From IMG/VR virus record IMGVR_UViG_3300033066_001594: a stretch of 20,000 bases of DNA; one strand, 5' to 3'. Origin of the DNA: an uncultured virus (IMG/VR IMGVR_UViG_3300033066_001594) (taxonomy: Duplodnaviria; Heunggongvirae; Uroviricota; Caudoviricetes). Within the stretch, counting starts at the first letter, position 1, and each line of letters begins with the position of its first letter. Below, piece after piece: positions 2,214 to 19,615 of this stretch. The notes beneath the pieces are model-generated. The model had not been told where the DNA came from. It worked only from the letters and a program-made list of their open reading frames with translations, and did not search any database. Made by a program: the position numbers and the translations under genes.

Positions 2214-3404
2214 ATGAAACCACTCGAGATCTACGACAAGGTGATCGGCCGGCAGCCCGGCTTGTACGGTCCGCTCCACGGGGCAGGACCGGCAGCCGTT
2301 GGCCGGGCCGTCCTCGGGGCGGGCATCGGCTACGGGGCCGGCAAGCTCTTTGGTGGTACACAGAAGACCAAGCGAAACCTCGCACTCGGCGGAGCGGTGG
2401 CCAGCCTTGTTCCCAGTGGTCTGGATATGGCGACGATGCACGGACTGGGTAAGGGGATGAATGATCCGTTCCCTTATGCCCCACCTGTCCAATCTGTCCA
2501 ACCTGTCTCGCCTGTCGCCCCGCCCAAGGTCGCTAAAGACCTGAGCTGGGTGGGCGTGCAGATCCCCGGGCACCTTCGCAAGCGAATCCGCGAGATGGCC
2601 AAGGGCGTTGCTGATGAAGACCTGGTCCCGGCAAAGATCAAGAACTACGGGCAGGGACGGGAGATGAACCCGCACGTCACCGTGCTCTATGGGCTCCGCA
2701 CCAAGGACCCCAAGAAAGTTGAGCCGGTAGTGAAGGGGAAATATCCCCGCATCCCGTTCCGCCTGGGAGCCATCAGTACTTTCGAGAAGCCTGATTACGA
2801 TGTGCTCAAGATTGACGTGCACTCAGGCGACCGGCTCAAGGGTCTTTACAACCATCTCAAGTCCAACCTGCCTAACGCCGACGTGCACCCCACGTATCAC
2901 CCGCACGTGACGCTGGCGTACCTGCGTAAGGGCGTGGCCCAGAAGTACGTGGGCTCTCACCCGCTTCGCGACCAGAAGGTGGAGGTGAACAAGGTCCGCT
3001 TCTCGACCTCGGACCGCGACAACACCGACATCAAGCTGGCCACGGCCATGGACACGATGGCCGAGATCGCCCCGGCCCAGTACAGCCCCGTCTACTTCCC
3101 GTTCGAACCAGGACAGGACCACATCTCGGTCAACGGGGCAGCCAACGCCGTGCTCGCCGATCCCAAGATGTCGCTGTCGCAGAAGGCCGTTGCGTTCGAC
3201 GTGCTCAGCAAGGCGGCCGATGGTCGGGACAGCGGACTGATCACAAAGAATGACCTGGTGCGTGGGGCATTGGGTGCGGGCATGGGCTATGTCGCGGCCC
3301 AGACGATGGGCCGCGTGCTCGGTGCCGTGTTCGGGCTGGATCGGACCAGCCAGCGTCGGCTCTCGCAGGCCGGGGCGTTGGGCGGATTGTTCAACAGTCT
3401 TTGA
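2214..3404 (+). CDS. 2H phosphoesterase (2',5'-RNA ligase/LigT/Acb1-like) domain protein with flanking glycine-zipper modules
   Basis: Two HxT motifs, NPHVTVLYGL (His at 2673) and YHPHVTLAYL (His at 2904), about 77 aa apart as in the 2H fold. LGAG(I/M)GY hydrophobic modules at both termini. Confidence 0.85.
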   Translation: MKPLEIYDKVIGRQPGLYGPLHGAGPAAVGRAVLGAGIGYGAGKLFGGTQKTKRNLALGGAVASLVPSGLDMATMHGLGKGMNDPFPYAPPVQSVQPVSPVAPPKVAKDLSWVGVQIPGHLRKRIREMAKGVADEDLVPAKIKNYGQGREMNPHVTVLYGLRTKDPKKVEPVVKGKYPRIPFRLGAISTFEKPDYDVLKIDVHSGDRLKGLYNHLKSNLPNADVHPTYHPHVTLAYLRKGVAQKYVGSHPLRDQKVEVNKVRFSTSDRDNTDIKLATAMDTMAEIAPAQYSPVYFPFEPGQDHISVNGAANAVLADPKMSLSQKAVAFDVLSKAADGRDSGLITKNDLVRGALGAGMGYVAAQTMGRVLGAVFGLDRTSQRRLSQAGALGGLFNSL

Positions 3405-3415
3405 TAAGAGCCACG

Positions 3416-3709
3416 ATGCTGGGTAAACGGAAAGACCTCGTCAAGCTTGCAAGTGGTATCTACGACTTGATGCAACCTGGTGAGTACGGCAAAGACGAGG
3501 ATGGCGTGTGGTATTGCTGTGCCCCTGCACCTGTTGACAAGGACGGGTTTGGATTCCACGGGACACTCGGCGACGGCAAGGGCGACCGTGGTCACATTGT
3601 GACCGAGCATGAAGACGGGACAATCACTGTCTTTCCTTCGATTCTCATTACTCGTCACGACGGGTCTTGGCATGGCTACCTTGAACGGGGCATCTGGCGT
3701 CAGTGCTGA
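3416..3709 (+). CDS. Small Cys/His protein resembling the DUF6527 family
   Basis: C-terminal HEDGTITVFPSIL...WHGYLERGIWRQC fits the TxxPSI...HxxxxxGxW pattern I associate with DUF6527. ATG 3416 preferred over TTG 3401, which overlaps the upstream stop. Confidence 0.65.
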   Translation: MLGKRKDLVKLASGIYDLMQPGEYGKDEDGVWYCCAPAPVDKDGFGFHGTLGDGKGDRGHIVTEHEDGTITVFPSILITRHDGSWHGYLERGIWRQC

Positions 3710-4127: not shown

Positions 4128-4488
4128 GAGAACCCGCCGATACTTCGCGGCAGACCCCGGCGTCGAGTTCCGCGGACAAGTCCCCCTTATCAATGCCGAC
4201 GACCCGAACCAGCCGCAGGAGTTCATGGACGGCATGGCTCGGGTCTTCAACCTTGCAGATCCCCAGCAGGCCAAGGATTACAATGAGGTGATCAACAAGG
4301 TCGCACGAGGCATCGCGATCCTGTGTAGGGAGGATGTAACGTTCAGCGAGAAGACGGACAACTACGTGATCTACGCTCGCTGGATGGAACGGTTTTACGC
4401 GATGCCCGACTACACACAGAAAGAGACCAACGGTGCAGCCCAAACTCAGCCCACTCCGAACGCTCCAGTCGCCCAGATTTCTGTCTAA
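4066..4488 (+). CDS. Hypothetical globular protein (140 aa)
   Basis: GTG start with GGAG about 8 nt upstream. Strong GC3 bias; fills the gap between its neighbours with short overlaps. Confidence 0.7.
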   Translation: MSQAQPSAANPIYNRFRQPDERTRRYFAADPGVEFRGQVPLINADDPNQPQEFMDGMARVFNLADPQQAKDYNEVINKVARGIAILCREDVTFSEKTDNYVIYARWMERFYAMPDYTQKETNGAAQTQPTPNAPVAQISV

Positions 4489-6580
4489 GACGGCGGGCGT
4501 CGAGGGTCAGCAAATCTCCAACGCTCTGTGGGGCTCCAATTACCAGCCCGACTCCAACGGATTCCTGAAGGACCCGCTCCTGCTGTCACTGGGCACGGGA
4601 CTGGGGATTGCCGGCGGTTCGGCACTGGCCAAGTACCTCGGTCCGAAGAAAGATGTTCCGACGCGTCAGCAGCTCAGCCTGCTCAAGCAGCGTCAACAGG
4701 CCTTCAGCCAGGCCCTGCAGGGGTCCGGTGCCACGCCGCCGGCCAAGCTCGCAGCCGCTGTCATCGACAGGGCCTGTGAACTTGTCACCGAGAAGCGGGC
4801 GTTCTGGGAGTGGTATCTGCCCGGTGCCATGCTCGCAGGGACCGCCGCCTATGGGGCGAGCTACCCGCACTTCTACAAGAACAACGAAAGCTACATCCGG
4901 GCCAAGGCGATGCAGCGTGCCAAGAGCCGCATCCAGGCGGTCAAGCCGCCGGGCGTGCAGGTCGAGACGCTCAAGCCGGGTGAAACACCCGAACAGCTCA
5001 AGGCCTTGTCCACGTCTTCGGAAGATGTGGTGCCGATGCCGTCCGCCGACAAGCTCGCCGGCCTCCAGTACCTGGACGATCTGGACCTGTTCGCCGCCCT
5101 CTCGCATTCGCTGTACACCGCCGGTGCCCTGCAGCCGGACGACAAGCCGCTCGTCGATCTGCTCGTGAAGACAGCGACACAGCGATACGCACGGACCGAG
5201 AAAACGGCCAGCGTGAAGCTGGCGTTCTCGGCCGAAGAACTGCAGACGGTGCTGGACAACCCGAACGCCCAGCCGCAGCTTCTGTCCATGATCGACAAGC
5301 TGATGAAGCTCAAGCCCCAGGACTTTGCCGAATACGGCAGCACGCCGCAGGAGGTCGTCGCCTACATCAAAGACAAGATGTCGTACCCCTTCATGGGCAG
5401 CACGGTTGCGGACGCCCTCACGAAAAAGGTCGAGGCAACGCCTGAAATCGCTTCTGACATCGCGAACCTCAGATCGACAGCAGGCTTACCCGCGGCGTCT
5501 CAGGCTCCTGCCGCACAGGCACAGGCGGGACAACAGGGCCAGCAGGGACAACAAGGACAGGACGGACAGCAGGGCCAAGGTGGCTTGAAGTCCAAGGCCA
5601 TGGACTTGCTCATGGACCAGACACCGCAGGGTCTGCTCGGCATTCTGGGTGGTGCCGTGGGGATGGCCACAGACCATCCGATCCTCGGACTGCTCGCTAT
5701 GGTGATGGGTGCGTTTGGTGCACCGGCCGTTTCCTTCCTGGCCAAGCAGTACCCGAACGTCGGCATCCTGCAGAAGGTCAACCAGTTCATGCAGGACACC
5801 ACGCTTCGCAAGCTCGTGGACGGCTACCACGCCAAGACGCAGGAAGCGATCAAGGGCGACGCACCCCCGACTCCTCCCACGACTCCTCCCACGACTCCGC
5901 CCACGACTCCGCCTACAACTCCACCCGCAGCTACTCCGCCTACGACTCCTGGCGGAGCGACGCCGTCGGCACCTGCAACAACCACACCGACGACGCCAGC
6001 CACACCACAACCGTCGGCTGGTCTACCGTCAGCGGCTACACCGGCGACACAGACCACGGCAGCAGTGCCAGGTAGAGAGGTGAGACAGCCTGCTGAGGGG
6101 CCAACGCCCAATGTGAATCAACCTCCGACCACAGCAGCAACGCCAGGTCGAGAGGTGCGGCAGCCCGCTGAAGGGCCAACGCCCTCACTCTCTAGTCCTG
6201 GATCTGCGTCCCCGGATACGGGAAACCAGCAGCTACAGCCAGCAGGGGCTGCTCCTGCGGCCCCGGTGTCGATGCCAAAGCCACCGACGACCCCCAGTAA
6301 GGTTCCTGCACCGATGCCAGCGGCACCGCCGGCAGTTAAATCAGGCATACCGTCGCCGGCAGCGGTCCCGATGCCACCGAGCATGAAGAACATCATGTCG
6401 GGCATGCCCAAGATCGATGTTCCGGGCGGTGCTTCAGCGACAAGCCACGGCTCGTCGCTGGGTATGAAACAGATGACGGGCCAGGCCCCGGCGGCTTCGG
6501 CGACCACGTCGGTCCCGACGCCCAAGCTCAACCCGCTACCCCACGGTGTCACGGGCCTTGGGCCTAAAGTCACCGCTTAA
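4433..6580 (+). CDS. Large hypothetical protein with K-x-A motifs, hydrophobic segments and a long Pro/Thr/Ala-rich disordered C-terminus (putative virion protein)
   Basis: 715-aa ORF with SKTA, AKLA, EKRA, DKLA, VKTA, EKTA and VKLA motifs, a GLLGILGGAVG...LGLLAMVMGAFG hydrophobic hairpin, and PPTT and GQQ repeats. Confidence 0.75.
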   Translation: MQPKLSPLRTLQSPRFLSKTAGVEGQQISNALWGSNYQPDSNGFLKDPLLLSLGTGLGIAGGSALAKYLGPKKDVPTRQQLSLLKQRQQAFSQALQGSGATPPAKLAAAVIDRACELVTEKRAFWEWYLPGAMLAGTAAYGASYPHFYKNNESYIRAKAMQRAKSRIQAVKPPGVQVETLKPGETPEQLKALSTSSEDVVPMPSADKLAGLQYLDDLDLFAALSHSLYTAGALQPDDKPLVDLLVKTATQRYARTEKTASVKLAFSAEELQTVLDNPNAQPQLLSMIDKLMKLKPQDFAEYGSTPQEVVAYIKDKMSYPFMGSTVADALTKKVEATPEIASDIANLRSTAGLPAASQAPAAQAQAGQQGQQGQQGQDGQQGQGGLKSKAMDLLMDQTPQGLLGILGGAVGMATDHPILGLLAMVMGAFGAPAVSFLAKQYPNVGILQKVNQFMQDTTLRKLVDGYHAKTQEAIKGDAPPTPPTTPPTTPPTTPPTTPPAATPPTTPGGATPSAPATTTPTTPATPQPSAGLPSAATPATQTTAAVPGREVRQPAEGPTPNVNQPPTTAATPGREVRQPAEGPTPSLSSPGSASPDTGNQQLQPAGAAPAAPVSMPKPPTTPSKVPAPMPAAPPAVKSGIPSPAAVPMPPSMKNIMSGMPKIDVPGGASATSHGSSLGMKQMTGQAPAASATTSVPTPKLNPLPHGVTGLGPKVTA
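5528..5583 (+). repeat. Coding 9-bp tandem repeat (GQQ)n
   Basis: GQQGQQGQQGQDGQQGQGG in the 715-aa ORF. Confidence 0.75.
5864..5950 (+). repeat. Coding 12-bp tandem repeat (PPTT)n
   Basis: ccN-ccc-acg-act units encoding PPTPPTTPPTTPPTTPPTTPPAATPPTTP. Confidence 0.85.
6068..6184 (+). repeat. Duplicated 14-aa motif PGREVRQPAEGPTP (6068-6109 and 6143-6184)
   Basis: Identical peptide twice, with only synonymous differences between the two DNA copies. Confidence 0.85.
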
Positions 6581-6608: not shown

Positions 6609-9600
6609 ATGGCAAGTCAACCACTCAGCCCACAACACGATGCACCGGCTCCCATTGAGCCGGTGCATCGTGATTTCCTGGATGTACCGTCCACCCGTCA
6701 GGGCCTGTTTGACGGCGTGATCGGGTCGATTAAGACCAGTTACCCGGTGTCGAACAACCAGTTCGAGCTGCACATCGAGAATCCCAAGTACACGGCGACG
6801 CCCAAGTACAGCATCGCCGACCAGAAAAACGCGATCCTCAAGCAGCAGAGCCTGACCTGGCCGATCAAGGGCGACTGGGTGCTGAAGGACAAGCAGGGTC
6901 AGGAGATCCACCGCGTCAAGAACAAGCTGATCGCCCGCGTGCCGTACATGACCGATCGCGGTACGTTCATCTACAACGGCACCGAGTGGACGGTCTCGAA
7001 CCAGCAGCGGCTGCGTTCAGGTGCCTACGCCCGCCAGAAGGAGAACGGTGACCTGGAGAACCACGTCAACCTGATCCCCGGCACGGGCAAGAGCTTCCGC
7101 CTGCACATGGAGCCTGACACTGGTGTGTTCAAGATCCAGGTCGAGCAGAGCCACATGCCCCTCTTCCCGGTGCTGCGTGCACTGGGTGCCTCTCCGAAGG
7201 ACTTTATCGATCACTGGGGTCACGACCTGTACATGGCCAACGCCCGGCAGGGAGATCCGCAGACCGTTGCCAAGGTGTTCGGCAAGCTGGCCCGCACCGC
7301 ACAGCTCGAACAGTTCAAGCATGACCCGGCCCTTGGCATCCGCGAGATCTTCGCCAAGGCGGGACTCGACCCGGAGGTGAGTCAGCGGAACCTGGGGGCC
7401 CCGCACGCCAGCGTGGACGCACCCATGCTGCTGGCGGCCACGCGGAAGCTCCTGCACATTCACCAGGGCAAGGCCGAGCCGGACGACCGCGACTCGCAGG
7501 CCAATCAGACGGTGCACGGCCCGGAGGACCTGTTCGCCGAACGCATCACCAAGGACTCGGGACGCATCGCCAAGCAGCTCCTGTGGAAGGCGACGCACAA
7601 CCGCAACCTCAACCACATCTCCTCGTCAGCCTTGACGCCGCAGCTCAACTCGGTGCTGCTGACCAGCGGCCTGGGTTCCCCGCTGTCAGAAATCAACCCC
7701 GTCGAGATCCTCGACCAGCTGGCTCGCGTGTCGCGTCTTGGTGACGGCGGCATGGGTTCGAGCGACGCCATTCCCATGGAGGCTCGCAGCGTCCAGCCCT
7801 CGCAGATGGGCTACATCGATGTCGTGGCCGGCCCCGAGTCAGGAAACATCGGTGTCGACACCCGTGCGGCGTGGGGTACGCGGAAGGGCAAGGACAACCT
7901 CCTCTACCAGCAGATGATCAACGTCCGGACGGGCAAGCCCGAGTACCGCTCGGCACGCGACACCGTTCACAGTGTGCTGGCGTTCCCCGGTGAGATGGAG
8001 AAGAACTCCTCGTCGGTCCGAGCCATGGTCGACGGCCGCATGACGTACGTGCCGAAAGAAAAAGTGGACTACGTGGTGCCCAGTGGCAACCACATGTTCG
8101 CGTTGACGACCAACCTCATTCCCGGCCTCTCCGGCATCAAGGGCGGCCGTGCTCTGATGGGTGCCAAGATGGTCAAGCAGGCTCTGCCCATGGTCAACGC
8201 CGAGGCCCCGCTCGTGCAGTCGGCTCACCCGGATGGCGGGAGTTTCCACGAACACCTGGGACGGTTGATGGGGACGGTGCATGCCGCGACCGACGGAATT
8301 GTCCAACGTGTTGGACGAGATTCGATTCACGTCCGCCACGCCGACGGCTCGCTCAAAGAGCACGAGTTGTATGACAACTTTCCGTTCAATGCCAAGAGCG
8401 TCAGCGGCAACAGCCTGGTCGAAGTAAGGAAGAAAAATAAAAAGGTTTGGACGGGGGCGATCCAGGACTACGTATCTCAGGAAGGAGATTTTGTTCGGTC
8501 CATTCATCCCGTAACACACCAGTCCGCGTGGATGCCAATCACAGGGTTCATAAAACACAGGAACGATAAAAAGCTGTACCGCATTACAACTGCATCCGGT
8601 CGTCACGTGGTTGTAACCGAAGACCACAGCTTAGTTACTGTTGGAGACGCCGGTCAGCTCGTGTCCGTATTTCCTAAGGATTGTGTGGTGGGTGAGACTA
8701 GACTCCCCGTCGCCACGATTCCTAATACGACAACCCTGTTTGATTGGTCCTACGATTTAGGCGTGGTTGCTGGCTTGTACCTCTCTGAAGGTCACATTCC
8801 AAAAGCTCAACCGAACCTGATTAATATCGCGGTCGCTCCTGATGTTAGAGCTGCTGAAGTAAAGGAGTTGCTTATTCGGGTTAGTACGAGCGGACGTAAG
8901 CCATTCCGGAATGGGGGCAGCGTTTGTCTGACTGACGTAAACCTGTCTAAATGGTTACAGCAACACTTCGGACGAATGTCTCATTTCAAGTTTGTGTCAG
9001 ACGCGGTTCTTAATGCCCCAGAGCCGTTCCGTCGCGGACTCGTCAACGGGTACATGGGCGGGGATGGTACTCTAGCCATCGACAGCAATAACGCCGTCCA
9101 GATCAACGCTTACAGTATGTCGAGGAATCTGCGTGACGGCCTGGTACGTGTCCTAGCGTCATTGTCTGTGTTCTGCTCTGTAGACGACAGTCGATCGTCC
9201 CCAGAAGGTCCGGTTTACGGCTTTCGAGTCATCTCATCTCACCTGACGAAGCTGGACCGATGGTTCTGTTACGAAGACCGACACGTCAAGTTCCAGGCCA
9301 CTACCAGCAAGACGTACCGATCATCCCCCTACTCTGCGATTCCTGTGCCAAAATCTCGTAAGGCTCGTAAAGCCCTCTACACGGACAACAAGCCAAACAT
9401 GTTTGTGTACAAAACAGCGAGTCTAGGTTTTGTTGCGAAGGAGCGTGTAGCTAAGTTCAAAGGCCCATACGGACGCTGGGGCCGATCCGACGTTATGTGG
9501 GACATGATCACAGACATTTCGCCCGTACCGCACGAGGATTATGTTTACGACTTTTCTGTGGGCGGATCTGAGAACTTTGCTGTAAATCACGGTCTAGTTG

Positions 9601-12600
9601 TTCACAACACGTTTGTGCACAGCACGCCGGTCGTCAAGCCGGGCGATCCGGTCACCGCCGGTCAGCTCCTGGCCAAGAGCAACTACACCAACGACAAAGG
9701 CGAGCTGGCACTGGGCCTGAATTTCAAGACCGGGTACATGCCGTACCAGTCGGAGCACGGCTCTGTGGCCGCTGACACCCACGTGCTGTGGTACGACAGC
9801 GACAATCAGCCACATTTCGGACCTGTTGAGACTGTAAGTGACGCTGTTAAAGCGTTAGCGTTAGATCCTAGATCACTTAAGACGTCTCCCCTCGGGATCA
9901 CTAAGCTGTGGGCTCACCCGCCAACTGGCGGTATGTCTGAAGTGATTACATCCTCCGGTCGACGTGTAGTCGCAACTGATAACCACAGCTTCGTAACTTT
10001 GAACGATGACGGGCAACTTGTGGAGTCTAAAACTACGGGACTCACACCCAAGGTGTCTTGGATTCCTCGTCTCGGGCGGGTTGACCTGCCCGTAACAACT
10101 ACAACGGCAGAGCTTGGATCCAAGACGTTGCCTGCGATTGTGCTTCCGCTGTCCGCCGATTTAGGATTTGTTGTTGGCATGTATCTCGCTGAAGGATACG
10201 TGCGGCTACACAAAAACGTCGACTTCGCGGTCACTGATCCTTTACTCCGTGTCCATCTTGTGGGGGCACTTCAACGGTTGTTACCGCACGCGACGATCTC
10301 AGACAAGCCTCAGAATCCTTACATTCGTGTGTACTGTTCTCGCCTTGCTCAGTGGCTGGAACAGACCTGTGGAAAGCTCGCACAGCGAAAGTTTGTGCCT
10401 GGTGCTGCTTTTGGGGCTCCTTTGGTGTTCCGTCTAAGCCTCCTCGCAGGTTTCTGGGCAGGCGATGGTCGTGTCTCGAGCAAACAGTCAGTACCGACAG
10501 ACACTGACACCCTTATCACGTCAAAGAGACTCCGTGACGGTCTGGGATTACTTTTCGCCAGCGTGGGTATTAGCACCACGCACGGCCAGTACACCGATGC
10601 TGCTTACTCGGAAGGGGTTGTGTACCGCCTTGGCATTAGCTGCCGTGACTTGAATAAATTTCCTACATTCCCGCACTCAGTTAAAGCGGCTCGTCTTGAT
10701 GAGATCGTGCGTAGTTACAAGGGCTGTGGGTCTGCAGATCACGTTCCTATCCCGCGTAATGCTGCAAAGGCGTACCAACAATGTGGACGGGGGCAAGGTC
10801 GTCGGGTCTACAACCGCCTCCAGGCTCAGGCCAAGGCGAGCACTGCTAATAGAGACGACGTATTGCGGTACGTGCCGGCTGATTCTCAAGACCCAGCACT
10901 CCAAGCTCTTCGACGGTTGGCTATCTCACCTATCGAGTGGGATCGCATTGAGTCTATTCAACCTAAGACCTACGTGGGGCTGGTTTATGACTTCGACATG
11001 GCTCCACTTCGTACGTTTGTTTGTGTTGATACGCTGGTAGTCCACAACTCCAACTACGAGGATGCCATCGTCATCAGCGAGGCGGCTGCCAAGCGTCTGA
11101 CCAGCGAGCACATGAAGCAGCAGACGTACGACCCGTCTGCCGAGGGCGTGAAGGTCGACCGCAATCACTACCTCTCGGTCTTCCCGACCAAGTTCAACCG
11201 GGATCAGCTCAACAGCATCGGGGACGACGGTGTGGTCAAGCCCGGCACGCGGGTGACCCACGGCGATCCGCTGGTCCTGTCGGTCAAGACCAAGAAGCCG
11301 CAGCAGGGCATGAGTGCGTTGCACCGTCACAACAAGAGCTATACCAACGACGACGCCCTCACCTGGACGTTCAAGCACCCGGGCGTCGTGACCGACGTGC
11401 ACCACGGTAACGACGGCATCAAGGTGACGGTCAAGAGCTATCACTCGATGCAGGTCGGCGACAAGCTTTCCGGTGCTTTCGGCGACAAGGGCGTGTGCGG
11501 GGCCATCGTCCCGGACGACCAGATGCCACGCGGCAGCGACGGCCAGCCTCTCGAGGTCCTGCTCAACCCGCTCGGGGCGATTACCCGCACCAACCCCAGC
11601 CAGTTGATCGAGGCGGCACTGGGCAAGGTCGCGGCCAAGACCGGCAAGAAATACGTCCTGCCGTCGTTCGGCACCGATCTGCTCAAGTACGCCATGAGCG
11701 AGCTGGAGAAGAACGGCCTCAGCGACACCGACAAGGTGTACGACCCGCACACCCGGCGGACCAACGAGGTCTTCACCGGCAACCGGTTTCTCTACAAGCT
11801 GTACCACGAGGCAGAATCCAAGGAGACGGGCCGATCGGACGCCGGCAGCTACACGAGTGAAGGTCAGCCGGCCAAGACCAAGGAAGAGTCGGCCAAGCGA
11901 CTGGGCCTGCTCGACATGAACGCCCTGATCTCTCACGGCGTGCCTGCCGTCATCCGCGACAGCAAGCTGGTCCGCGGCCAGCGGAATGACGCCTACTGGG
12001 CAGCCTTCCGGTCCGGCCAGACGCCGCCGGCACCCGAGACGCCGTTCATCTACAACAAGTGGCTTGCCCACCTGCAGGGGTCAGGCGTTCACATTCGTGA
12101 CACGGCCCACGGCCTGCAGCTCATGGCCATGCGTGACAAGGACGTCGACCAGCTCTCACGGGGTGCTCTGACCCACGGCGACTCGGTGAGTCTCAAGGAC
12201 AACAAGCCCATTCCTGGTGGCTTGTTCGACGTCGGACTGACGGGTGGTCACCACGGGCAGAATTGGACACACCTGGACCTGAGCGAGCCGATTCCCAACC
12301 CGGTGATGGAAGAGCCGGTCCGTCGGCTGCTCGGCCTGACACAGAAGGAGTTCGAACAGCGGCTCGCGTCCCCGGAAGGGACCCACTGGTTCAAGGACAA
12401 GCTCGCGTCACTGGACGTCGATAAGGAGATCACCAGCCAGCGTCGACTGATCGAATCAGGCCGCAGGTCCAAGCGTGACGAGGCGGTCAAGAAGCTGGGC
12501 TACCTGACCACGCTCAAGCAGACAGGTATCAAGCCCCAGGAACTGCTGATGAGCAAGTTCCCGGTCATTCCGCCAGCGATGCGTCCTGTGACCAAGGTCG

Positions 12601-14882
12601 GCAACATGCAGCTGACCTCAGACGCCAACTTCCTGTACCAGGAGCTGCACAAGGCGTCCGAGAACCTGAGGGAGGCCAGAGAAGCGGGTCTCGAGTCCGG
12701 GACCGAACGTCTGGATCTCTACAACGCGGCCAAGGCCGTCAGCGGCCTGGGCGATCCGCTCTCCCGCAAGCTGCAGGAGAAGGGCGTCGCCGGCCTGCTC
12801 ACGCACGTATTCGGCAAGGGCAGTCCCAAGGGCGGCCAGTTCCAGCGTCGGCTTATCGGCGGGACGCTCGACACGGTCGGACGTGCGGCCATCACGCCGA
12901 ACCCGACCATGGACATGGACCACGTGGGTATTCCTGAATCCAAAGCCTGGCAGGTGTACCGGCCGTTCATCATGCGTCGTCTGGCCCGGCAGTACAACGT
13001 AGGGGCAGAGGCCAAGGTCCCGGTCACTGAGCTGGCCCAGTGGGTTGCCAGAAAAGACCCAAGGGCCAAGCAAGCGTTGCTGGACGAGATGCAGGAGCGT
13101 CCGGTCATGATCAACCGGGCACCGGTGTGGCACCGCTACGGCTACATGGCGGCCTGGCCCAAGCTCGTGAAGGGTGAGACGCTGCACATCAGCCCGATCA
13201 CGACCACTGGCTTTGGTGCCGACTTTAATGGTGATAGTTTTATTAGTTGTAGCGTTCCTTGTGTCATAAATGGCGAATTTCACGTAGGTTCCATCGAATC
13301 ACTGGTGGCTAAGATAATACCTGGATTTAGTGAGCACAATGCCTTAAAGTGGTGGGGTAAGCAGACAACTATTTTCCCCGTTACCTCTGGAGGTCTTCTC
13401 GTGCTTGGACTTGATAAGGACAAAAAGGCCAGTTTTGTCGAAGCTTCCCATATCAGCATTCACACGTCACACGGGCCAGACTGTTTCCGTGTGACTTCTG
13501 ATTGCGGCCTCGACGCAACTTTTACAGCACATCACAATTTCTTCGTCCTGGATGAACGCTGTGAGCTAGTACCAGTCAAGACGGAGCAAGTGCACCCAGA
13601 CGGACTGATTCCTTACGTGCGTAAGTTCCAGTTGCCCCAGGATGGTCGATCGCCGCTGGACGCACCAAATCCATTCGAGCTGACGTTTGAGACTGGTTTC
13701 TGGTTTGGCCACTACTTGGGCGACGGTTCGATTACAGGTCGTCGTGACACAATTAGCCAGGCCGCGTGTGACGCCGGTCTTCTTGGCTACGTGGAGGCAA
13801 TCGGATCCCAAATCTTTAAAGGCATCACGCCGTGGCGTGAAGGGAACAATTGTTCAACGCGTTGGACAAACACGGCGTGGGTTCGATTCTTTGAAAGCTG
13901 GGGGTGTCTTGCCGCGTCAAAACAGATACCCGGGTGGATGGTTCAATCGAACGACGAGTTTCGTCGTGGGCTCCTCGCTGGGTTCATTGCAGCAGAAGGT
14001 AGTGTTACTAAACAGGCGGTACGCATCGAGATCGTAAATCGATCAATGCTGCTTCAGTTCAAGTTCATCGCAGAGTCGTTTGGGTGCATCTGTCGAATGG
14101 GTAAAGGTAAGGAGGCTACAGATCGTAAACAGGCCACGTACCTACTTCGTATTAGTGATCTAAAATCGGCCAACATTAAGTGGCCAAGCTTTCCACGTGT
14201 TCAGCGATTTGCGACTCTGACTGTGGGAAGACGTAATTGGGATCTCGTCCCGTTACCAGAATCCGTCACTGAAGTCTGCGAGGCTCAAGGTAAGAAGATG
14301 GCAGGCTCTGCGGGAGCCGCTTACCGGAAGTCATTAAACAGGAGTCGCCACGCCCCAGAGTACAAACAGTTTACGATCGCAGCAAAAGAACAGGTATGTA
14401 CACGAGAGTTCGCAAAGTGGATCATCGACGGTTACGGATTGAGAACGCTGGACGATGTGACTATTTGTAATTGGATCAGCTGGGTGGATAACCCAACGGT
14501 CTATTGGGACAAGATTCGTACTGTCGAGAAAGTGGACCGTCCACCTGTGACGTATGACTTCAGCGTCCCTGGACACGAGGCCTTTGCAATTGACGGCACG
14601 TGTCTGACTCACAACACGATGAACTACTCGGTGCCCGTGTCCGAGGACGCCGTCCGCGAGGCCATCGACAAGATGATGCCGAGCAGGAACCTGTTCTCGA
14701 CCCGTGACTTTGGCGTGCACATGATGCCCCGGCAGGAATACCTGCACGGCCTGTTCGCGGCAACCCGCCGCATCCGCGAAGACCGGCCGACTCGTACCTT
14801 TGCCAGCAAGCAGGATGTGCTGCGGTCCCTGCGACGGGGTGAAATCGGCGTCGACGATCCTGTGGAGATAGTCGGACGGTAA
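6609..14882 (+). CDS. rpoBC: DNA-directed RNA polymerase beta subunit fused to the N-terminal half of beta', with three inteins (2757-aa precursor, about 1464 aa spliced)
   Basis: Beta motifs: VPYMTDRGTFIYNGTE, GPESGNIG, RALMGAKMVKQA, NYEDAIVIS, GDKLSGAFGDKG, LLNPLG, KLYH. Beta' motifs in the same frame: KPIPGGLFD, PVIPPAMRP, SDANFLY, NRAPVWHR, GADFNGD/TMNYSVP. Confidence 0.95.
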   Translation: MASQPLSPQHDAPAPIEPVHRDFLDVPSTRQGLFDGVIGSIKTSYPVSNNQFELHIENPKYTATPKYSIADQKNAILKQQSLTWPIKGDWVLKDKQGQEIHRVKNKLIARVPYMTDRGTFIYNGTEWTVSNQQRLRSGAYARQKENGDLENHVNLIPGTGKSFRLHMEPDTGVFKIQVEQSHMPLFPVLRALGASPKDFIDHWGHDLYMANARQGDPQTVAKVFGKLARTAQLEQFKHDPALGIREIFAKAGLDPEVSQRNLGAPHASVDAPMLLAATRKLLHIHQGKAEPDDRDSQANQTVHGPEDLFAERITKDSGRIAKQLLWKATHNRNLNHISSSALTPQLNSVLLTSGLGSPLSEINPVEILDQLARVSRLGDGGMGSSDAIPMEARSVQPSQMGYIDVVAGPESGNIGVDTRAAWGTRKGKDNLLYQQMINVRTGKPEYRSARDTVHSVLAFPGEMEKNSSSVRAMVDGRMTYVPKEKVDYVVPSGNHMFALTTNLIPGLSGIKGGRALMGAKMVKQALPMVNAEAPLVQSAHPDGGSFHEHLGRLMGTVHAATDGIVQRVGRDSIHVRHADGSLKEHELYDNFPFNAKSVSGNSLVEVRKKNKKVWTGAIQDYVSQEGDFVRSIHPVTHQSAWMPITGFIKHRNDKKLYRITTASGRHVVVTEDHSLVTVGDAGQLVSVFPKDCVVGETRLPVATIPNTTTLFDWSYDLGVVAGLYLSEGHIPKAQPNLINIAVAPDVRAAEVKELLIRVSTSGRKPFRNGGSVCLTDVNLSKWLQQHFGRMSHFKFVSDAVLNAPEPFRRGLVNGYMGGDGTLAIDSNNAVQINAYSMSRNLRDGLVRVLASLSVFCSVDDSRSSPEGPVYGFRVISSHLTKLDRWFCYEDRHVKFQATTSKTYRSSPYSAIPVPKSRKARKALYTDNKPNMFVYKTASLGFVAKERVAKFKGPYGRWGRSDVMWDMITDISPVPHEDYVYDFSVGGSENFAVNHGLVVHNTFVHSTPVVKPGDPVTAGQLLAKSNYTNDKGELALGLNFKTGYMPYQSEHGSVAADTHVLWYDSDNQPHFGPVETVSDAVKALALDPRSLKTSPLGITKLWAHPPTGGMSEVITSSGRRVVATDNHSFVTLNDDGQLVESKTTGLTPKVSWIPRLGRVDLPVTTTTAELGSKTLPAIVLPLSADLGFVVGMYLAEGYVRLHKNVDFAVTDPLLRVHLVGALQRLLPHATISDKPQNPYIRVYCSRLAQWLEQTCGKLAQRKFVPGAAFGAPLVFRLSLLAGFWAGDGRVSSKQSVPTDTDTLITSKRLRDGLGLLFASVGISTTHGQYTDAAYSEGVVYRLGISCRDLNKFPTFPHSVKAARLDEIVRSYKGCGSADHVPIPRNAAKAYQQCGRGQGRRVYNRLQAQAKASTANRDDVLRYVPADSQDPALQALRRLAISPIEWDRIESIQPKTYVGLVYDFDMAPLRTFVCVDTLVVHNSNYEDAIVISEAAAKRLTSEHMKQQTYDPSAEGVKVDRNHYLSVFPTKFNRDQLNSIGDDGVVKPGTRVTHGDPLVLSVKTKKPQQGMSALHRHNKSYTNDDALTWTFKHPGVVTDVHHGNDGIKVTVKSYHSMQVGDKLSGAFGDKGVCGAIVPDDQMPRGSDGQPLEVLLNPLGAITRTNPSQLIEAALGKVAAKTGKKYVLPSFGTDLLKYAMSELEKNGLSDTDKVYDPHTRRTNEVFTGNRFLYKLYHEAESKETGRSDAGSYTSEGQPAKTKEESAKRLGLLDMNALISHGVPAVIRDSKLVRGQRNDAYWAAFRSGQTPPAPETPFIYNKWLAHLQGSGVHIRDTAHGLQLMAMRDKDVDQLSRGALTHGDSVSLKDNKPIPGGLFDVGLTGGHHGQNWTHLDLSEPIPNPVMEEPVRRLLGLTQKEFEQRLASPEGTHWFKDKLASLDVDKEITSQRRLIESGRRSKRDEAVKKLGYLTTLKQTGIKPQELLMSKFPVIPPAMRPVTKVGNMQLTSDANFLYQELHKASENLREAREAGLESGTERLDLYNAAKAVSGLGDPLSRKLQEKGVAGLLTHVFGKGSPKGGQFQRRLIGGTLDTVGRAAITPNPTMDMDHVGIPESKAWQVYRPFIMRRLARQYNVGAEAKVPVTELAQWVARKDPRAKQALLDEMQERPVMINRAPVWHRYGYMAAWPKLVKGETLHISPITTTGFGADFNGDSFISCSVPCVINGEFHVGSIESLVAKIIPGFSEHNALKWWGKQTTIFPVTSGGLLVLGLDKDKKASFVEASHISIHTSHGPDCFRVTSDCGLDATFTAHHNFFVLDERCELVPVKTEQVHPDGLIPYVRKFQLPQDGRSPLDAPNPFELTFETGFWFGHYLGDGSITGRRDTISQAACDAGLLGYVEAIGSQIFKGITPWREGNNCSTRWTNTAWVRFFESWGCLAASKQIPGWMVQSNDEFRRGLLAGFIAAEGSVTKQAVRIEIVNRSMLLQFKFIAESFGCICRMGKGKEATDRKQATYLLRISDLKSANIKWPSFPRVQRFATLTVGRRNWDLVPLPESVTEVCEAQGKKMAGSAGAAYRKSLNRSRHAPEYKQFTIAAKEQVCTREFAKWIIDGYGLRTLDDVTICNWISWVDNPTVYWDKIRTVEKVDRPPVTYDFSVPGHEAFAIDGTCLTHNTMNYSVPVSEDAVREAIDKMMPSRNLFSTRDFGVHMMPRQEYLHGLFAATRRIREDRPTRTFASKQDVLRSLRRGEIGVDDPVEIVGR
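8397..9608 (+). mobile_element. Intein 1 with LAGLIDADG homing endonuclease (404 aa) in RNAP beta
   Basis: Starts SVSGNSLV; block B VVVTEDH; LAGLIDADG-like VAGLYLSEG and VNGYMGGDG; ends VVHN followed by Thr. Removal gives FPFNAK-TFVHSTP, matching E. coli RSNQN-TCINQMP. AT-richer codons. Confidence 0.92.
9762..11048 (+). mobile_element. Intein 2 with LAGLIDADG homing endonuclease (429 aa) in RNAP beta
   Basis: Starts SVAADTHV; block B VATDNH; VGMYLAEG and LAGFWAGDG; ends VVHN followed by Ser. Removal gives MPYQSEHG-SNYEDAI, matching MPWNGYNFEDSI. Confidence 0.92.
13236..14615 (+). mobile_element. Intein 3 with LAGLIDADG homing endonuclease (460 aa), directly after the catalytic DxxGD motif of beta'
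   Basis: Starts SFISCSVP; block B FTAHH; FGHYLGDG and LAGFIAAEG; ends CLTHN followed by Thr. Removal gives GADFNGD-TMNYSVP, matching NADFDGD-QMAVHVP. Confidence 0.92.
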
Positions 14883-16150: not shown

Positions 16151-16650
16151 TCCTGCTGATCGGGCAATTCCAAGGGATGGCACTCAAGCCGATCCGCCTG
16201 GAAGGTGTTACCTCTGTCCTCATCAAACGGGCCATTGGCGATCAGCCGACGGGGCCGATCGCCGCCATCCTTCAGCTCACCCCCAACTCGTACTGGATCA
16301 GCTCACGGGGCGATGATGACTTCCAGTCGACGATCGATGACCTGGGGCTGACCCGGCTTGCCGTGCTCTTGGAAGCTGTAGTGCGATACCCGTCGTTCCT
16401 GTCCGTGCAGGTGATGCAGGGCCTCCAGGCCACGACCCATCTCGTGGACGTGGACCACGTGGCCGTGCTGGACGAGTTCGACCAGGCGATCTTCCTGGCC
16501 CGTATGGTCACAAGCTCTTCCGCGTGGCTGGGCCGGCTGAAGGACAAGGACTTTGACAAGCAACTGGATGCCCTGGGCCTGGGTCAGAGTACACTGAACG
16601 TGGACAGCCTTAATCAAGATGATTACCTCACCGGGACAATTGCTGGTTAA
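16147..16650 (+). CDS. Hypothetical protein made of two tandem ~70-aa repeats, coupled to the beta'-C gene
   Basis: YWISSRGDDDFQSTIDDLGL versus AWLGRLKDKDFDKQLDALGL. ATGA coupling upstream and a 32-nt overlap with the downstream gene. Confidence 0.75.
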   Translation: MILLIGQFQGMALKPIRLEGVTSVLIKRAIGDQPTGPIAAILQLTPNSYWISSRGDDDFQSTIDDLGLTRLAVLLEAVVRYPSFLSVQVMQGLQATTHLVDVDHVAVLDEFDQAIFLARMVTSSSAWLGRLKDKDFDKQLDALGLGQSTLNVDSLNQDDYLTGTIAG

Positions 16651-19615
16651 CGACGCCCTCCCTGAGGACCTGCGTCGACCCCAATGGCGTCTGGACAAGA
16701 AGGGCGTGACCGAGCTGTTCACACAGATCGCTAACCGCTATCCGGATCGCTACCGCGACATTGCCCAGCAGCTCATGAGCAGCGGCCACTTCTCGGCCCA
16801 GTCGTCCGGCACGACGCTCCGGCTCCGCGACCTGATGTTGCCACCCGAAGTCGAGCAGCGGATGCAGTCACTTCGCTCCCAGGTCCAGGCCCTCGCCGAG
16901 CAGGACATCCCACGCGAACAGAAAGAGAAGCTCATCGTCGATCTCGTCTTCAAGGGCAGCAACGGCCTGGAGAAGACGCTCATGGATCACGGGCTGACAC
17001 ACGACAACAACCTCGCCGCCCAGGTGTCCAGCGGTTCACGCGGAAACCCGACACAATTCAAGCAGCTTGTGGCCGGCGACATGCTCGTGGCCGATCACCG
17101 CAACCGCGTGATCCCCGTGCCCGTGCTCCACGGCTACGCCAACGGCGTCGAGCCGGCCGAGTACTTCGCCGCCTCCTACGGTGCACGGCGTGGCACCATC
17201 TCGACCAAGTTCGCTACCCGCAATGCCGGCTTCCTCGGCAAGCAGCTGGCGATGATCGCACACCGACTGGTCGTCAGTGAGAAGGACTGCGGGGCCACGA
17301 CCGGCATGCCCGTCGAGGGAAGTGACAAGGACAACATCGGCTCTGTGCTGGCCCAGGACACGGGCGGTCACAAGGCCGGCACGATCATTACGGCGGACAT
17401 GCTGGGCGATTTTCAGGACAAGAAGATCCTGGTCCGTTCGCCGACCACCTGCCAATCCTCTCGCGGCGTGTGTGCCAAGTGTGTCGGCGTCCGTGAGAAG
17501 GGTCACCTACCTGAAGTCGGCGAGAACGTCGGCATGGCTGCGGCACAGGCCGTGAGCGAGCCGCTGGCCCAGTCGAGTTTGTGCCTAGCAAAAGGAACGC
17601 TGGTCCGCATGGCAGATTCGACGGAACAAGCCATCGAAAAGATTAAACCAGGAGATTGGGTCCTCGGGGCGGATATACAAGGACGAGCATTTCCAGTTAA
17701 GGTCCTACGACGGTTCGACAACGGGCTTAGAGCCTGCCATCAGACAACGTTTAGAATCGGAACCCAGCACGCCGCTGAAGCTACGCAGCTTACGTCTACG
17801 TTAGATCACAAAATTCTCGCAACGACGTGGTACAGCAATTGTCAGAGCGAGCAATACAACAACACTGCACGGATTCTTCCGGTCGGGTTCAAAAACAGCA
17901 GACTGTCGGCTGTTTACCCGTCTTCGATTCGGTTTAACTGCACACTTAAAGAGCCACGGGCGTTACTTCTGGGTTTGTTGTTGGGCGATGGTTGCTATAC
18001 CAAGTCGGTGGGTCGTCCTTATTTCTCTTGTGACGATCCACAACTCATCAGCGAACTGGCAGCGTATCTACAGGCTATGAACCTCCAGCTGGTGTTTCAC
18101 AAGGGCAGTAAATGTTATTGGCGAGTCTCACAGATCAAGGACACCATTAACCAGGACCCAAAGACTGGACGGACAACAGCCGGTAGTCGGAACCCGGCGA
18201 AGATCTTGCTTCAGCACTACGGGATCGACGAGAAGTACGCCCATGAAAAAGAGATCCCATCTCAGCTACTTAAGGCTGACAACGCGACCGTTGCGGATTT
18301 GATCGCCGGTCTCTGGATAACGGATGGCTCGCTGTATTTGACTGAAAAAGGACGTCGCTTACACCTGGGGTTCACGTCTACATCCCCGGTACTGGTTCGT
18401 CAGTTGAAGTGGTTATTGCAATGGCGTTTCGGTATCTACGGTGCTGCGGTTCACTTTAGCCCGATGTCACAGAATAAGACGCGAAAGCACGACGTGTACA
18501 GCTTCGCCATTGCCAGGCAGGATGCAGTTAGACGCTTCGTTGAGAAAATTCCGCTACGTGGAATTAAAGCTGAGAAGGCTAGGATGTGGGCTGATCGACT
18601 CGTTAATGAAAACGCCCTTCAGCACCAGCGAGGATCACGAACCAGTCAGACGTTCGTTGGCAACCTTCCAACGTTTGATATTGAAGTTGATCACCCTGAT
18701 CACCTGTTTGTACTGGCTAACGGGTTGATCGTCAGTAACTCAGAAAAGCACTCGGGTGGTGCGGTCACCAAGCGGGCGGCCGAGACCAGCGGGTTCGACT
18801 ACATCAACCGTCTGATCCAGACGCCTAAACAGTTTTCAGGTTCGGCCGTTGTCGCCAGCAGGGCGGGTCGGATCACCGATATCGTCGACGCTCCGCAGGG
18901 TGGCAAGTTCGTTTACGTCGACAGCGAAAAGCACTACGTGCCGCCGTCCGAGACCGTCTCGGTCAAGCCGGGCGACAAGCTGGATGCCGGCGACTTGTTG
19001 TCGGAAGGCGTACCCAACCCGGCCGATGTCGTGGCCCACAAGGGGATCGGTGAAGGCCGGCGGAGTTTTACGCAGACGTTGTACAAGGCCCTGGCCGACA
19101 GCGGGATCAAGGCCCATCGCCGAAACGTGGAGCTGATCTCCAGGGGCCTGATCAACCACGTGAAGTGGAATGGCGAAGACCCGGACCATCATGTCCTGCC
19201 GGACGATATCGTGCCCTATGACAGCATCTCCAAGTCATACCGCCCCCGGGCGGACGCCAGGACGCTGGAGCCGGCACGGGCCGTCGACATGCACCTCGAA
19301 CACCCAGCCCTTCATTACTCGATCGGGACCAAGATTACGCCTCGCGTGGCGAACGAGCTGAACGAGTTTGGCGTGAACCAGGTGGTGGCCCACCCCGAGC
19401 CGCCGCCGTTCGATCCACACATGCTCCACGGCCGCGAAGTGGGGCTCAAGGACCCGAACTGGGTGACACGCATGGGTTCGTCGTATTTAGAGAAGGGGTT
19501 CCTCGAAGGCGTGCACCGTGGTCGTACGGCACAGACGTCTGACACCAGCTTCTACCCGAGCCTTGCCAAGACCAAGGGATTCGGTTCTGACCTAGACAAG
19601 AGCGGAACGTACTAG
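16619..19615 (+). CDS. rpoC: DNA-directed RNA polymerase beta' subunit, C-terminal half, with one intein (998-aa precursor, about 612 aa spliced)
   Basis: TSPGQLLVNDALP (TTxGR..N..LP), SGSRGN, bridge helix YGARRGTISTKFATRNAGFLGKQL, VSEKDCG, Zn site RSPTTC...GVCAKCVG, trigger loop AQAVSEPLAQSSL/SEKHSGG, GIKAHRRNVELI. Confidence 0.95.
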   Translation: MITSPGQLLVNDALPEDLRRPQWRLDKKGVTELFTQIANRYPDRYRDIAQQLMSSGHFSAQSSGTTLRLRDLMLPPEVEQRMQSLRSQVQALAEQDIPREQKEKLIVDLVFKGSNGLEKTLMDHGLTHDNNLAAQVSSGSRGNPTQFKQLVAGDMLVADHRNRVIPVPVLHGYANGVEPAEYFAASYGARRGTISTKFATRNAGFLGKQLAMIAHRLVVSEKDCGATTGMPVEGSDKDNIGSVLAQDTGGHKAGTIITADMLGDFQDKKILVRSPTTCQSSRGVCAKCVGVREKGHLPEVGENVGMAAAQAVSEPLAQSSLCLAKGTLVRMADSTEQAIEKIKPGDWVLGADIQGRAFPVKVLRRFDNGLRACHQTTFRIGTQHAAEATQLTSTLDHKILATTWYSNCQSEQYNNTARILPVGFKNSRLSAVYPSSIRFNCTLKEPRALLLGLLLGDGCYTKSVGRPYFSCDDPQLISELAAYLQAMNLQLVFHKGSKCYWRVSQIKDTINQDPKTGRTTAGSRNPAKILLQHYGIDEKYAHEKEIPSQLLKADNATVADLIAGLWITDGSLYLTEKGRRLHLGFTSTSPVLVRQLKWLLQWRFGIYGAAVHFSPMSQNKTRKHDVYSFAIARQDAVRRFVEKIPLRGIKAEKARMWADRLVNENALQHQRGSRTSQTFVGNLPTFDIEVDHPDHLFVLANGLIVSNSEKHSGGAVTKRAAETSGFDYINRLIQTPKQFSGSAVVASRAGRITDIVDAPQGGKFVYVDSEKHYVPPSETVSVKPGDKLDAGDLLSEGVPNPADVVAHKGIGEGRRSFTQTLYKALADSGIKAHRRNVELISRGLINHVKWNGEDPDHHVLPDDIVPYDSISKSYRPRADARTLEPARAVDMHLEHPALHYSIGTKITPRVANELNEFGVNQVVAHPEPPPFDPHMLHGREVGLKDPNWVTRMGSSYLEKGFLEGVHRGRTAQTSDTSFYPSLAKTKGFGSDLDKSGTY
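17582..18739 (+). mobile_element. Intein 4 with LAGLIDADG homing endonuclease (386 aa) in the trigger loop
   Basis: Starts CLAKGTLVRMAD; block B STLDH; LGLLLGDG and IAGLWITDG; ends LIVSN followed by Ser. Removal gives EPLAQSSL-SEKHSGG, matching EPGTQLTM-RTFHIGG. Confidence 0.92.

Follow-up and report, generated by a model that had tools for sequence, protein, structure and literature searches.

A 2H phosphoesterase domain in the K-x-A-marked linker of a phage scaffold protein: a candidate processed virion cargo

The window analysed here is a stretch of 20,000 nucleotides from an uncultured virus of the Caudoviricetes (IMG/VR record IMGVR_UViG_3300033066_001594). We found that it encodes an intact 2H phosphoesterase in the linker between the two glycine-zipper modules of a small carrier protein, hereafter the scaffold, and on balance we take the enzyme to be a virion-borne cargo that is processed at the short motif K-x-A. 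What the sequences show directly is the domain, its catalytic motifs and borders, the absence of the insert from most relatives, the enrichment of K-x-A and the gene neighbourhood; the virion role of the scaffold, the processing, the ejection and the substrate are inferred. In the mechanism that we propose, the enzyme likely reaches the prohead by virtue of its fusion to the scaffold. A predicted head protease would there cut the scaffold after KVA, and probably after KLA, freeing the 2H domain, which would survive prohead proteolysis because its fold avoids K-x-A. The freed enzyme would then be ejected along with the DNA and the polymerase into the next host, and would likely hydrolyse cyclic or 2′-5′ oligonucleotide immune signals, lowering the nucleotide alarm early in infection.

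Gene layout and domain borders

Both modules, the linker and the 2H domain share a single frame, a plus-strand ORF of 396 aa (Table 1), on a linear record of 71,462 bases that is estimated to be 37% complete. All the strings quoted in the original prediction lie in this frame, and its identification of a 2H enzyme was confirmed by the Pfam profile PF13563 (38.8 bits, above the cut-off of 27) and by two intact H-x-T motifs. Contigs of other runs span the 5′ junction (X2 record 5, X5 record 9) and the 3′ junction (X2 record 6), indicating that the fusion is no assembly artefact, and the N-module/2H/C-module architecture is kept in homologues at 77%, 73% and 37% identity.

The domain of about 169 aa had been proposed to begin and end at K-x-A. 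In a model built from 58 sequences (pLDDT 91.3), the first strand spans residues 111-116 and the last strand residues 270-274, and the alignment with LigT covers model positions 5-175 (residues 107-277), reaching LigT C-terminal residue 176; the borders as first drawn are thus right to within about two residues. The upstream KVA proved to be conserved, but the downstream KLA is not the conserved downstream site and overlaps the last strand. When the 396-aa protein is shuffled, 1.1% of the shuffles have K-x-A in each of the two border windows, which were chosen post hoc. The resemblance claimed for the two flanking modules was detectable (37% over 46 aa, pairwise E 6e-5), but it is weak and lies in glycine-rich sequence. 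The full-length fold, predicted from a four-row alignment, was unusable (pLDDT 33), which leaves the scaffold without a structure, and a complex prediction for the N- and C-modules scored 0.00, giving no evidence either way.

Table 1. Coordinates of the features in the window
Feature	Position	Strand	Basis
Whole gene: N-module, K-x-A, 2H phosphoesterase, linker, C-module	2214..3404	+	ORF; full-length homologues; both junctions spanned by contigs of other runs
N-terminal glycine-zipper module of the scaffold and proline-rich linker, residues 1-104	2214..2525	+	Alignments; weak scaffold-profile match (E 1e-4); mildly hydrophobic
K105-V-A107, conserved upstream K-x-A, predicted head-protease site	2526..2534	+	11 of 13 non-redundant carriers (shuffle, 0.86) have K-x-A no more than 12 residues ahead of the first strand
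2H phosphoesterase domain, residues ~109-277	2535..3041	+	Pfam PF13563, 38.8 bits; model pLDDT 91.3; VIA Z scores
H154-V-T156, first H-x-T motif	2673..2681	+	Sequence
H231-V-T233, second H-x-T motif	2904..2912	+	Sequence
K274-L-A276, end of last beta-strand (270-274); may be a substitute cleavage site, but is in part a feature of the family	3033..3041	+	Model; column counts; kept in the two closest homologues
E-I-A, degenerate remnant in the column that holds K-x-A (M-x-K-x-A) in other carriers	3063..3071	+	Alignment; offsets of P0005, P0025, P0026 and P0040, +8 to +10 from the last Leu
C-terminal glycine-zipper module, conserved across 288 protein clusters	3072..3401	+	Scaffold profile, E 4.6e-38
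Intein-containing beta/beta′ fusion of a multi-subunit RNA polymerase; homologue of Arash gp206	6609..14882	+	Profile and homology searches
C-terminal part of RNA polymerase beta′, containing an intein; homologue of Arash gp216	16619..19615	+	Profile and homology searches

The 2H enzyme and its candidate substrates

The domain shows both features of the 2H superfamily, namely two H-x-T/S motifs and a two-lobed fold (Z 15.9, rmsd 3.6, 163 residues aligned to 5h7e). Both histidines and T156 are invariant in 58 aligned relatives, and T233 is kept in at least 90% of them. Among solved structures the closest folds were drCPDase, TT0787, YjcG and LigT (Z 15.2-15.9), with Usb1 also among the top matches; by VIA, Z was 15.9 for drCPDase, 15.2 for LigT, 12.8 for Acb1 and 12.2 for PDE-9. 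The cellular enzymes (LigT/ThpR, drCPDase, YjcG, Usb1) are thus the best fold matches (Z 14-16 over 150-163 residues, 10-16% identity), although they differ from the query by its phage head-gene context. A profile search of solved proteins ranked PDE-9 first (E 2e-7), followed by archaeal ThpR-like proteins and FBB1 Acb1 (2.6e-5). A single-sequence PDB search gave no match.

The original prediction had pointed to Acb1. Membership of the Acb1 family was rejected, since PF23474 gave 17.5 bits against a cut-off of 27 and the fold is nearer to LigT and CPDase. The match to the LigT/ThpR equivalog TIGR02258 was far under its cut-off (33.1 bits vs 65.7), and so was the score of PRK13679. Two of 11 other scanned carriers do pass PF23474 (33.2 and 31.6 bits), which places the carrier 2H clade adjacent to Acb1. 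Compared with Acb1 (T4 gp57B; FBB1, 7T26/7T27) and PDE-9, the query shares the 2H fold, the HxT/HxT tetrad and a phage origin, but it is about 25 residues longer, has two more C-terminal strands and no identified lid, is embedded in a larger protein, and is known here from its sequence and a model. Acb1 has a short C-terminal lid with Glu141 and Trp147 (PMC13577500). It aligns only to model residue 165-168, and the stretch that follows in the query, 262-276, lacks Trp and takes the form of strands in the model; prediction of lids is poor, and some are N-terminal.

The sequence relatives of the domain either stand alone as short proteins or form part of large ones (34 below 260 aa and 53 above 700 aa among 106 non-redundant loci), and they sit in portal, MuF, prohead-protease and polyvalent proteins, the last of 1,500-5,600 aa. 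Thirty hand-picked relatives gave 8 portal, 4 MuF, 3 ART-PolyVal and 1 InPase profile matches, some of them below the Pfam cut-off. Judged by sequence, the 2H domain belongs to the group of Iyer et al. 2017, whose members are found as fusions to portal, MuF and polyvalent proteins. A quick 2H tree, unfinished and poorly resolved, intermixed carriers with head-fused and polyvalent relatives (8 changes) and gave no support for carrier monophyly.

We also noted other settings of this domain. Tunturi 5 gp321 (L097:6462-10550) is a 1362-aa protein among structural genes that is annotated as NUDIX and holds SprT-like, 2H, three ART-PolyVal and GNAT domains, with its 2H domain flanked by KAA and KTA. 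In other large phages (loci L122 and L164, and protein P0006) the same 2H domain follows K-x-A at the protein C-terminus, and in L122 and L164 the N-terminal part weakly matches the nucleoside 2-deoxyribosyltransferase-like family PF15891.

The fold does not reveal the substrate. PDE-9, the 2H enzyme of Burkholderia phage BCSR5 (9Q2G), cleaves 3′3′-cGAMP, and in the accessible part of the same preprint substrate follows the core, with two tested structural groups cutting none of 18 messengers (Doherty et al., bioRxiv 10.1101/2025.08.21.671373). If the enzyme is indeed processed virion cargo, we give immune oligonucleotides an even chance of being its substrate; RNA 2′,3′-cyclic phosphate ends are a doubtful second choice, and some other substrate is less likely again.

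The alternative that survives best, though we hold it to be rather unlikely, keeps the virion cargo and makes the enzyme a LigT/ThpR-like RNA 2′,3′-cyclic phosphodiesterase or a Usb1-like RNase, which would heal or trim RNA ends after attack by host toxins or anticodon nucleases and so support the early transcripts of the co-packaged polymerase. It is in keeping with the top-ranking folds, with a full-length model whose two C-terminal strands extend beyond the Acb1-aligned part, and with the TIGR02258 match, weak as it is, and an RNase is one of the two options given by Iyer et al. 2017 (PMC5512222). That match is, however, far below its cut-off, Z-scores are biased towards longer targets, PDE-9 ranks first among solved proteins in the profile search, and in the accessible text of Iyer et al. 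such 2H versions were never seen with RNA ligases (PMC5512222). A search of the 37%-complete contig gave no Rnl1 or RtcB match, the Rnl1 control itself giving no signal.

The scaffold family and the K-x-A motif

The C-terminal 120 residues of the scaffold, scanned against 1.84 billion representatives, matched 288 clusters, and the family counts below are for the best 150 of these 288. Together with the query and one near-copy they give 152 scaffold proteins, of which 15 carry the 2H domain and 137 do not, in line with the expectation that homologues would lack it; the share of carriers is overstated if anything, since the ranking puts the proteins most similar to the query first. Both modules were matched in 103 of the 107 non-carriers of at least 185 aa (44 built the profile). 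In a rough scaffold tree (FastTree, 101 columns) all 15 carriers fell in one 37-row part among 22 non-carriers, with four changes, and one or a few insertions of the 2H domain followed by losses would fit this tree. In the carrier P0043 the 2H domain lies ahead of the entire scaffold.

That homologues would swap the domain for other cargo was not borne out, as no other known enzyme was recognised in the slot by Pfam on 93 relatives (the longer ones of 148 new relatives) or by PHROGs on 16. P0078, P0084, P0125 and P0142 have long inserts without a Pfam or PHROGs name, and the scaffold itself has no name in either; the best hits of an ESM Atlas search (best score 0.86) were hypothetical viral clusters, a lead only. 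A shared-word search for shorter proteins with the C-module only found none; an HMMER scan gave 28 C-module matches of at most 161 aa, some perhaps fragments, 10 of which have K-x-A within their first 23 residues. At L196:9466-10300 the C-module forms a separate ORF of 126 aa after a glycine-rich ORF of 168 aa, whose N-module match is unconvincing (1.4 bits).

Of the 118 non-carriers that remained once 19 with too little upstream sequence had been excluded, 73 have K-x-A within the 36 residues that precede the C-module, against 22-25 by shuffle; many of those without it read K-x-S. In P0012, a close non-carrier, two K-x-A lie 17 residues apart in the slot. For the carriers we used 13 non-redundant proteins, with two near-copies dropped and P0096 anchored by hand. 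Here K-x-A coincided with the domain borders as predicted, occurring upstream in 11 against 0.86 expected, downstream in 10 against 1.77 and on both sides in 9 against 0.13, although shared ancestry means that these are not independent events. Inside the folded domain of the same 13 carriers the motif occurs 5 times against 11.2 expected, as would be expected of a piece meant to survive. Across the contig, K-[TLVI]-A was enriched in nine ORFs of the structural region (21 vs 4.4 expected) but not in the remaining ORFs, some of them spurious (11 vs 10.8). The signal for all K-x-A in the structural ORFs was weaker (29 vs 18.0), ranking sixth among X-x-Y patterns.

T4 head proteins carry capsid-targeting tags of the form L/I-x-E. 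Among the 2H relatives, L/I-x-E stands just upstream of the domain in 19 of the 34 short ones (<260 aa). In a test of motif covariation across the 106 2H loci, a single locus reached the K-x-A threshold, and the signal for L/I-x-E was weak (6/10 vs 24/96, p 0.03).

The head protease of phage SPN3US recognises the three-residue motif A-X-E, and the pieces that it releases mostly leave the head (PMC10052503), a point against cargo that stays in the capsid. By analogy with this protease, which cuts after A-X-E, K-x-A is most simply read as a maturation site, and we consider it a likely one; no report of cleavage at K-x-A was found in the literature searched. Processed internal head proteins are marked by a short motif that is over-represented both in head proteins and where domains meet, and such a motif is present here. 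Like SPN3US/phiKZ and the internal head proteins of T4, the present system combines a three-residue motif repeated in head proteins, a virion RNA polymerase and likely ejection; it differs in that the motif is K-x-A, the lineage is Arash-like and the processing is putative.

The downstream border is less clear-cut. In other carriers the downstream K-x-A lies 2 or 8-10 residues past the last leucine, and the column at 8-10 reads EIA here and EIA or QIA in the sub-lineage of the query. All three members of this sub-lineage retain KLA. However, K is the commonest residue in column 274 (16 of 57 relatives) and column 275 is hydrophobic (L/I/V in 47 of 57); K and a hydrophobic residue at the strand end are thus family features, which makes KLA weaker evidence than KVA. 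It may be a replacement cleavage site or chance. We see the case for a downstream cut at KLA, which would excise the 2H domain fully rather than leave it on the C-module, as evenly balanced; against it stand the loss of the conserved downstream site and the overlap of KLA with a folded strand.

This bears on a second alternative, an unlikely one, in which the domain is cut upstream only, or remains uncut, so that it would work where the phage enters, tethered to the C-module, a possibly membrane-associating ejection protein. The degenerate EIA/QIA, the family character of K-L in the last strand, and three carriers, two with only K-x-S downstream and one with no site within 22 residues, would agree with tethering. 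Against this, KLA has persisted throughout the sub-lineage, 9 of the 13 carriers have K-x-A strictly past the domain, and both modules are only mildly hydrophobic (19-residue means 1.1-1.3).

Head-gene setting and relation to known systems

A portal gene lies at C1 48289-50070, and the scaffold gene stands between the portal and the RNA polymerase genes. The order portal, scaffold, RNA polymerase recurs in two of three other IMG/VR contigs, and the third has portal and scaffold; in all three the scaffold is without 2H and downstream of the portal homologue. The RNA polymerase beta/beta′ split is unlike that of cellular enzymes, with three intein stretches in 6609-14882 and one in 16619-19615. 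Directly after the scaffold gene, a 102-aa ORF (3401-3709) matches phrog_15183 and, weakly, DUF6527. The long proteins of 501-2204 and 4433-6580 are made of glycine-zipper or Pro/Gln/Thr-rich segments parted by 8 and 7 K-x-A, respectively. They gave no informative Pfam or PHROGs match, and they are probably further processed head proteins.

The portal matches gp204 of Salmonella phage Arash (28.8% over 489 aa), and the polymerase subunits match Arash gp206 and gp216. The proteome of the Arash particle is topped by the polymerase beta subunit and includes gp204, gp206, gp216 and gp218-226 (PMC10585845, Table 2), although its authors caution that enzymes in the particle preparation may be carry-over (PMC10585845). 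In gp218-226 (37729-46607) we counted 46 K-x-A against 21.0 expected, compared with 46 against 60.1 in a control region. Across gp218-gp226 the K-x-A consensus is L/M-x-K-x-A-S/A, on which the accessible text of the Arash paper does not remark, and the Arash capsid protein has K-E-A at 27-29. Pfam on gp218-220 and gp222 was blank, and no head protease was identified among them.

A search with the scaffold profile, run without a positive control, found no match in Arash, Tunturi 5, LR756511 or two IMG/VR records (0/5); with the scaffold not found in Arash, no proteome places it in a virion, and the main text of the Tunturi 5 paper has no mass spectrometry. We nevertheless regard the scaffold as a probable virion protein. 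The 2H profile found no match in Arash or the three scaffold-only contigs (0/4; contigs 51-66% complete), in a search that also missed Arash gp143. This protein (27465-27917, minus strand) is annotated as 'RNA ligase', yet it matches Pfam Acb1 with 57.8 bits (cut-off 27); it has no K-x-A. With 14 unique peptides and 204 spectra in the particle proteome, under the same carry-over caveat (PMC10585845), gp143 is a cultured candidate for a virion-associated Acb1.

The remaining alternative, a late-expressed scaffold-type or non-packaged protein whose 2H domain would serve the cell that makes the virions, at the assembly stage at which CBASS is triggered by structural proteins, and would be lost once the head matures, is improbable: K-x-A-rich proteins may be degraded scaffolds, propeptides mostly leave the SPN3US head (PMC10052503) and CBASS is reported to be triggered by prohead protease (PMC13728456), but K-x-A is depleted within the 2H domain and a cytoplasmic role needs no fusion to a head-cluster protein.

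The principle behind the preferred reading, a packaged 2H enzyme acting on nucleotide signals, is already in print as a prediction for other carriers. Iyer et al. 2017 predicted that phage 2H domains fused to polyvalent, MuF or portal proteins are packaged and act as RNases or degraders of immune nucleotides (PMC5512222). Our case has the same portal, MuF, prohead-protease and polyvalent relatives, virion-gene setting and predicted role. What is new is the carrier, a small conserved two-module glycine-zipper protein, and the bracketing of the domain by the short K-x-A, neither of which is in the accessible text of that paper. Our literature search, which most subscription papers lay outside, found no description of this carrier, of the K-x-A motif or of a test of packaged Acb1, and no experimental test of the 2017 prediction.

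Acb1-type activities in the accessible literature are those of enzymes made during infection or purified as recombinant proteins, while a packaged 2H enzyme would act at the moment of entry. The sharp natural borders of the cassette offer a clean construct for assays. The K-x-A idea can be addressed in cultured Arash, whose virion proteome also lists the Acb1-family protein annotated as RNA ligase, and, if K-x-A is a protease site, mature products and cargo would become readable across hundreds of uncultured phages. A bolder reading, which we hold to be rather unlikely, is that Arash-like phages use K-x-A as a so far undescribed head-maturation code and a conserved core head protein as a loading dock, the linker of which accepts cassettes; one lineage would have placed there a phosphodiesterase against the messengers of CBASS or type III CRISPR, to be freed inside the capsid and to enter the cell alongside the virion RNA polymerase, with no phage gene yet expressed. 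If so, a messenger-destroying enzyme would arrive in the host ready-made, ahead of anything that the phage itself expresses.
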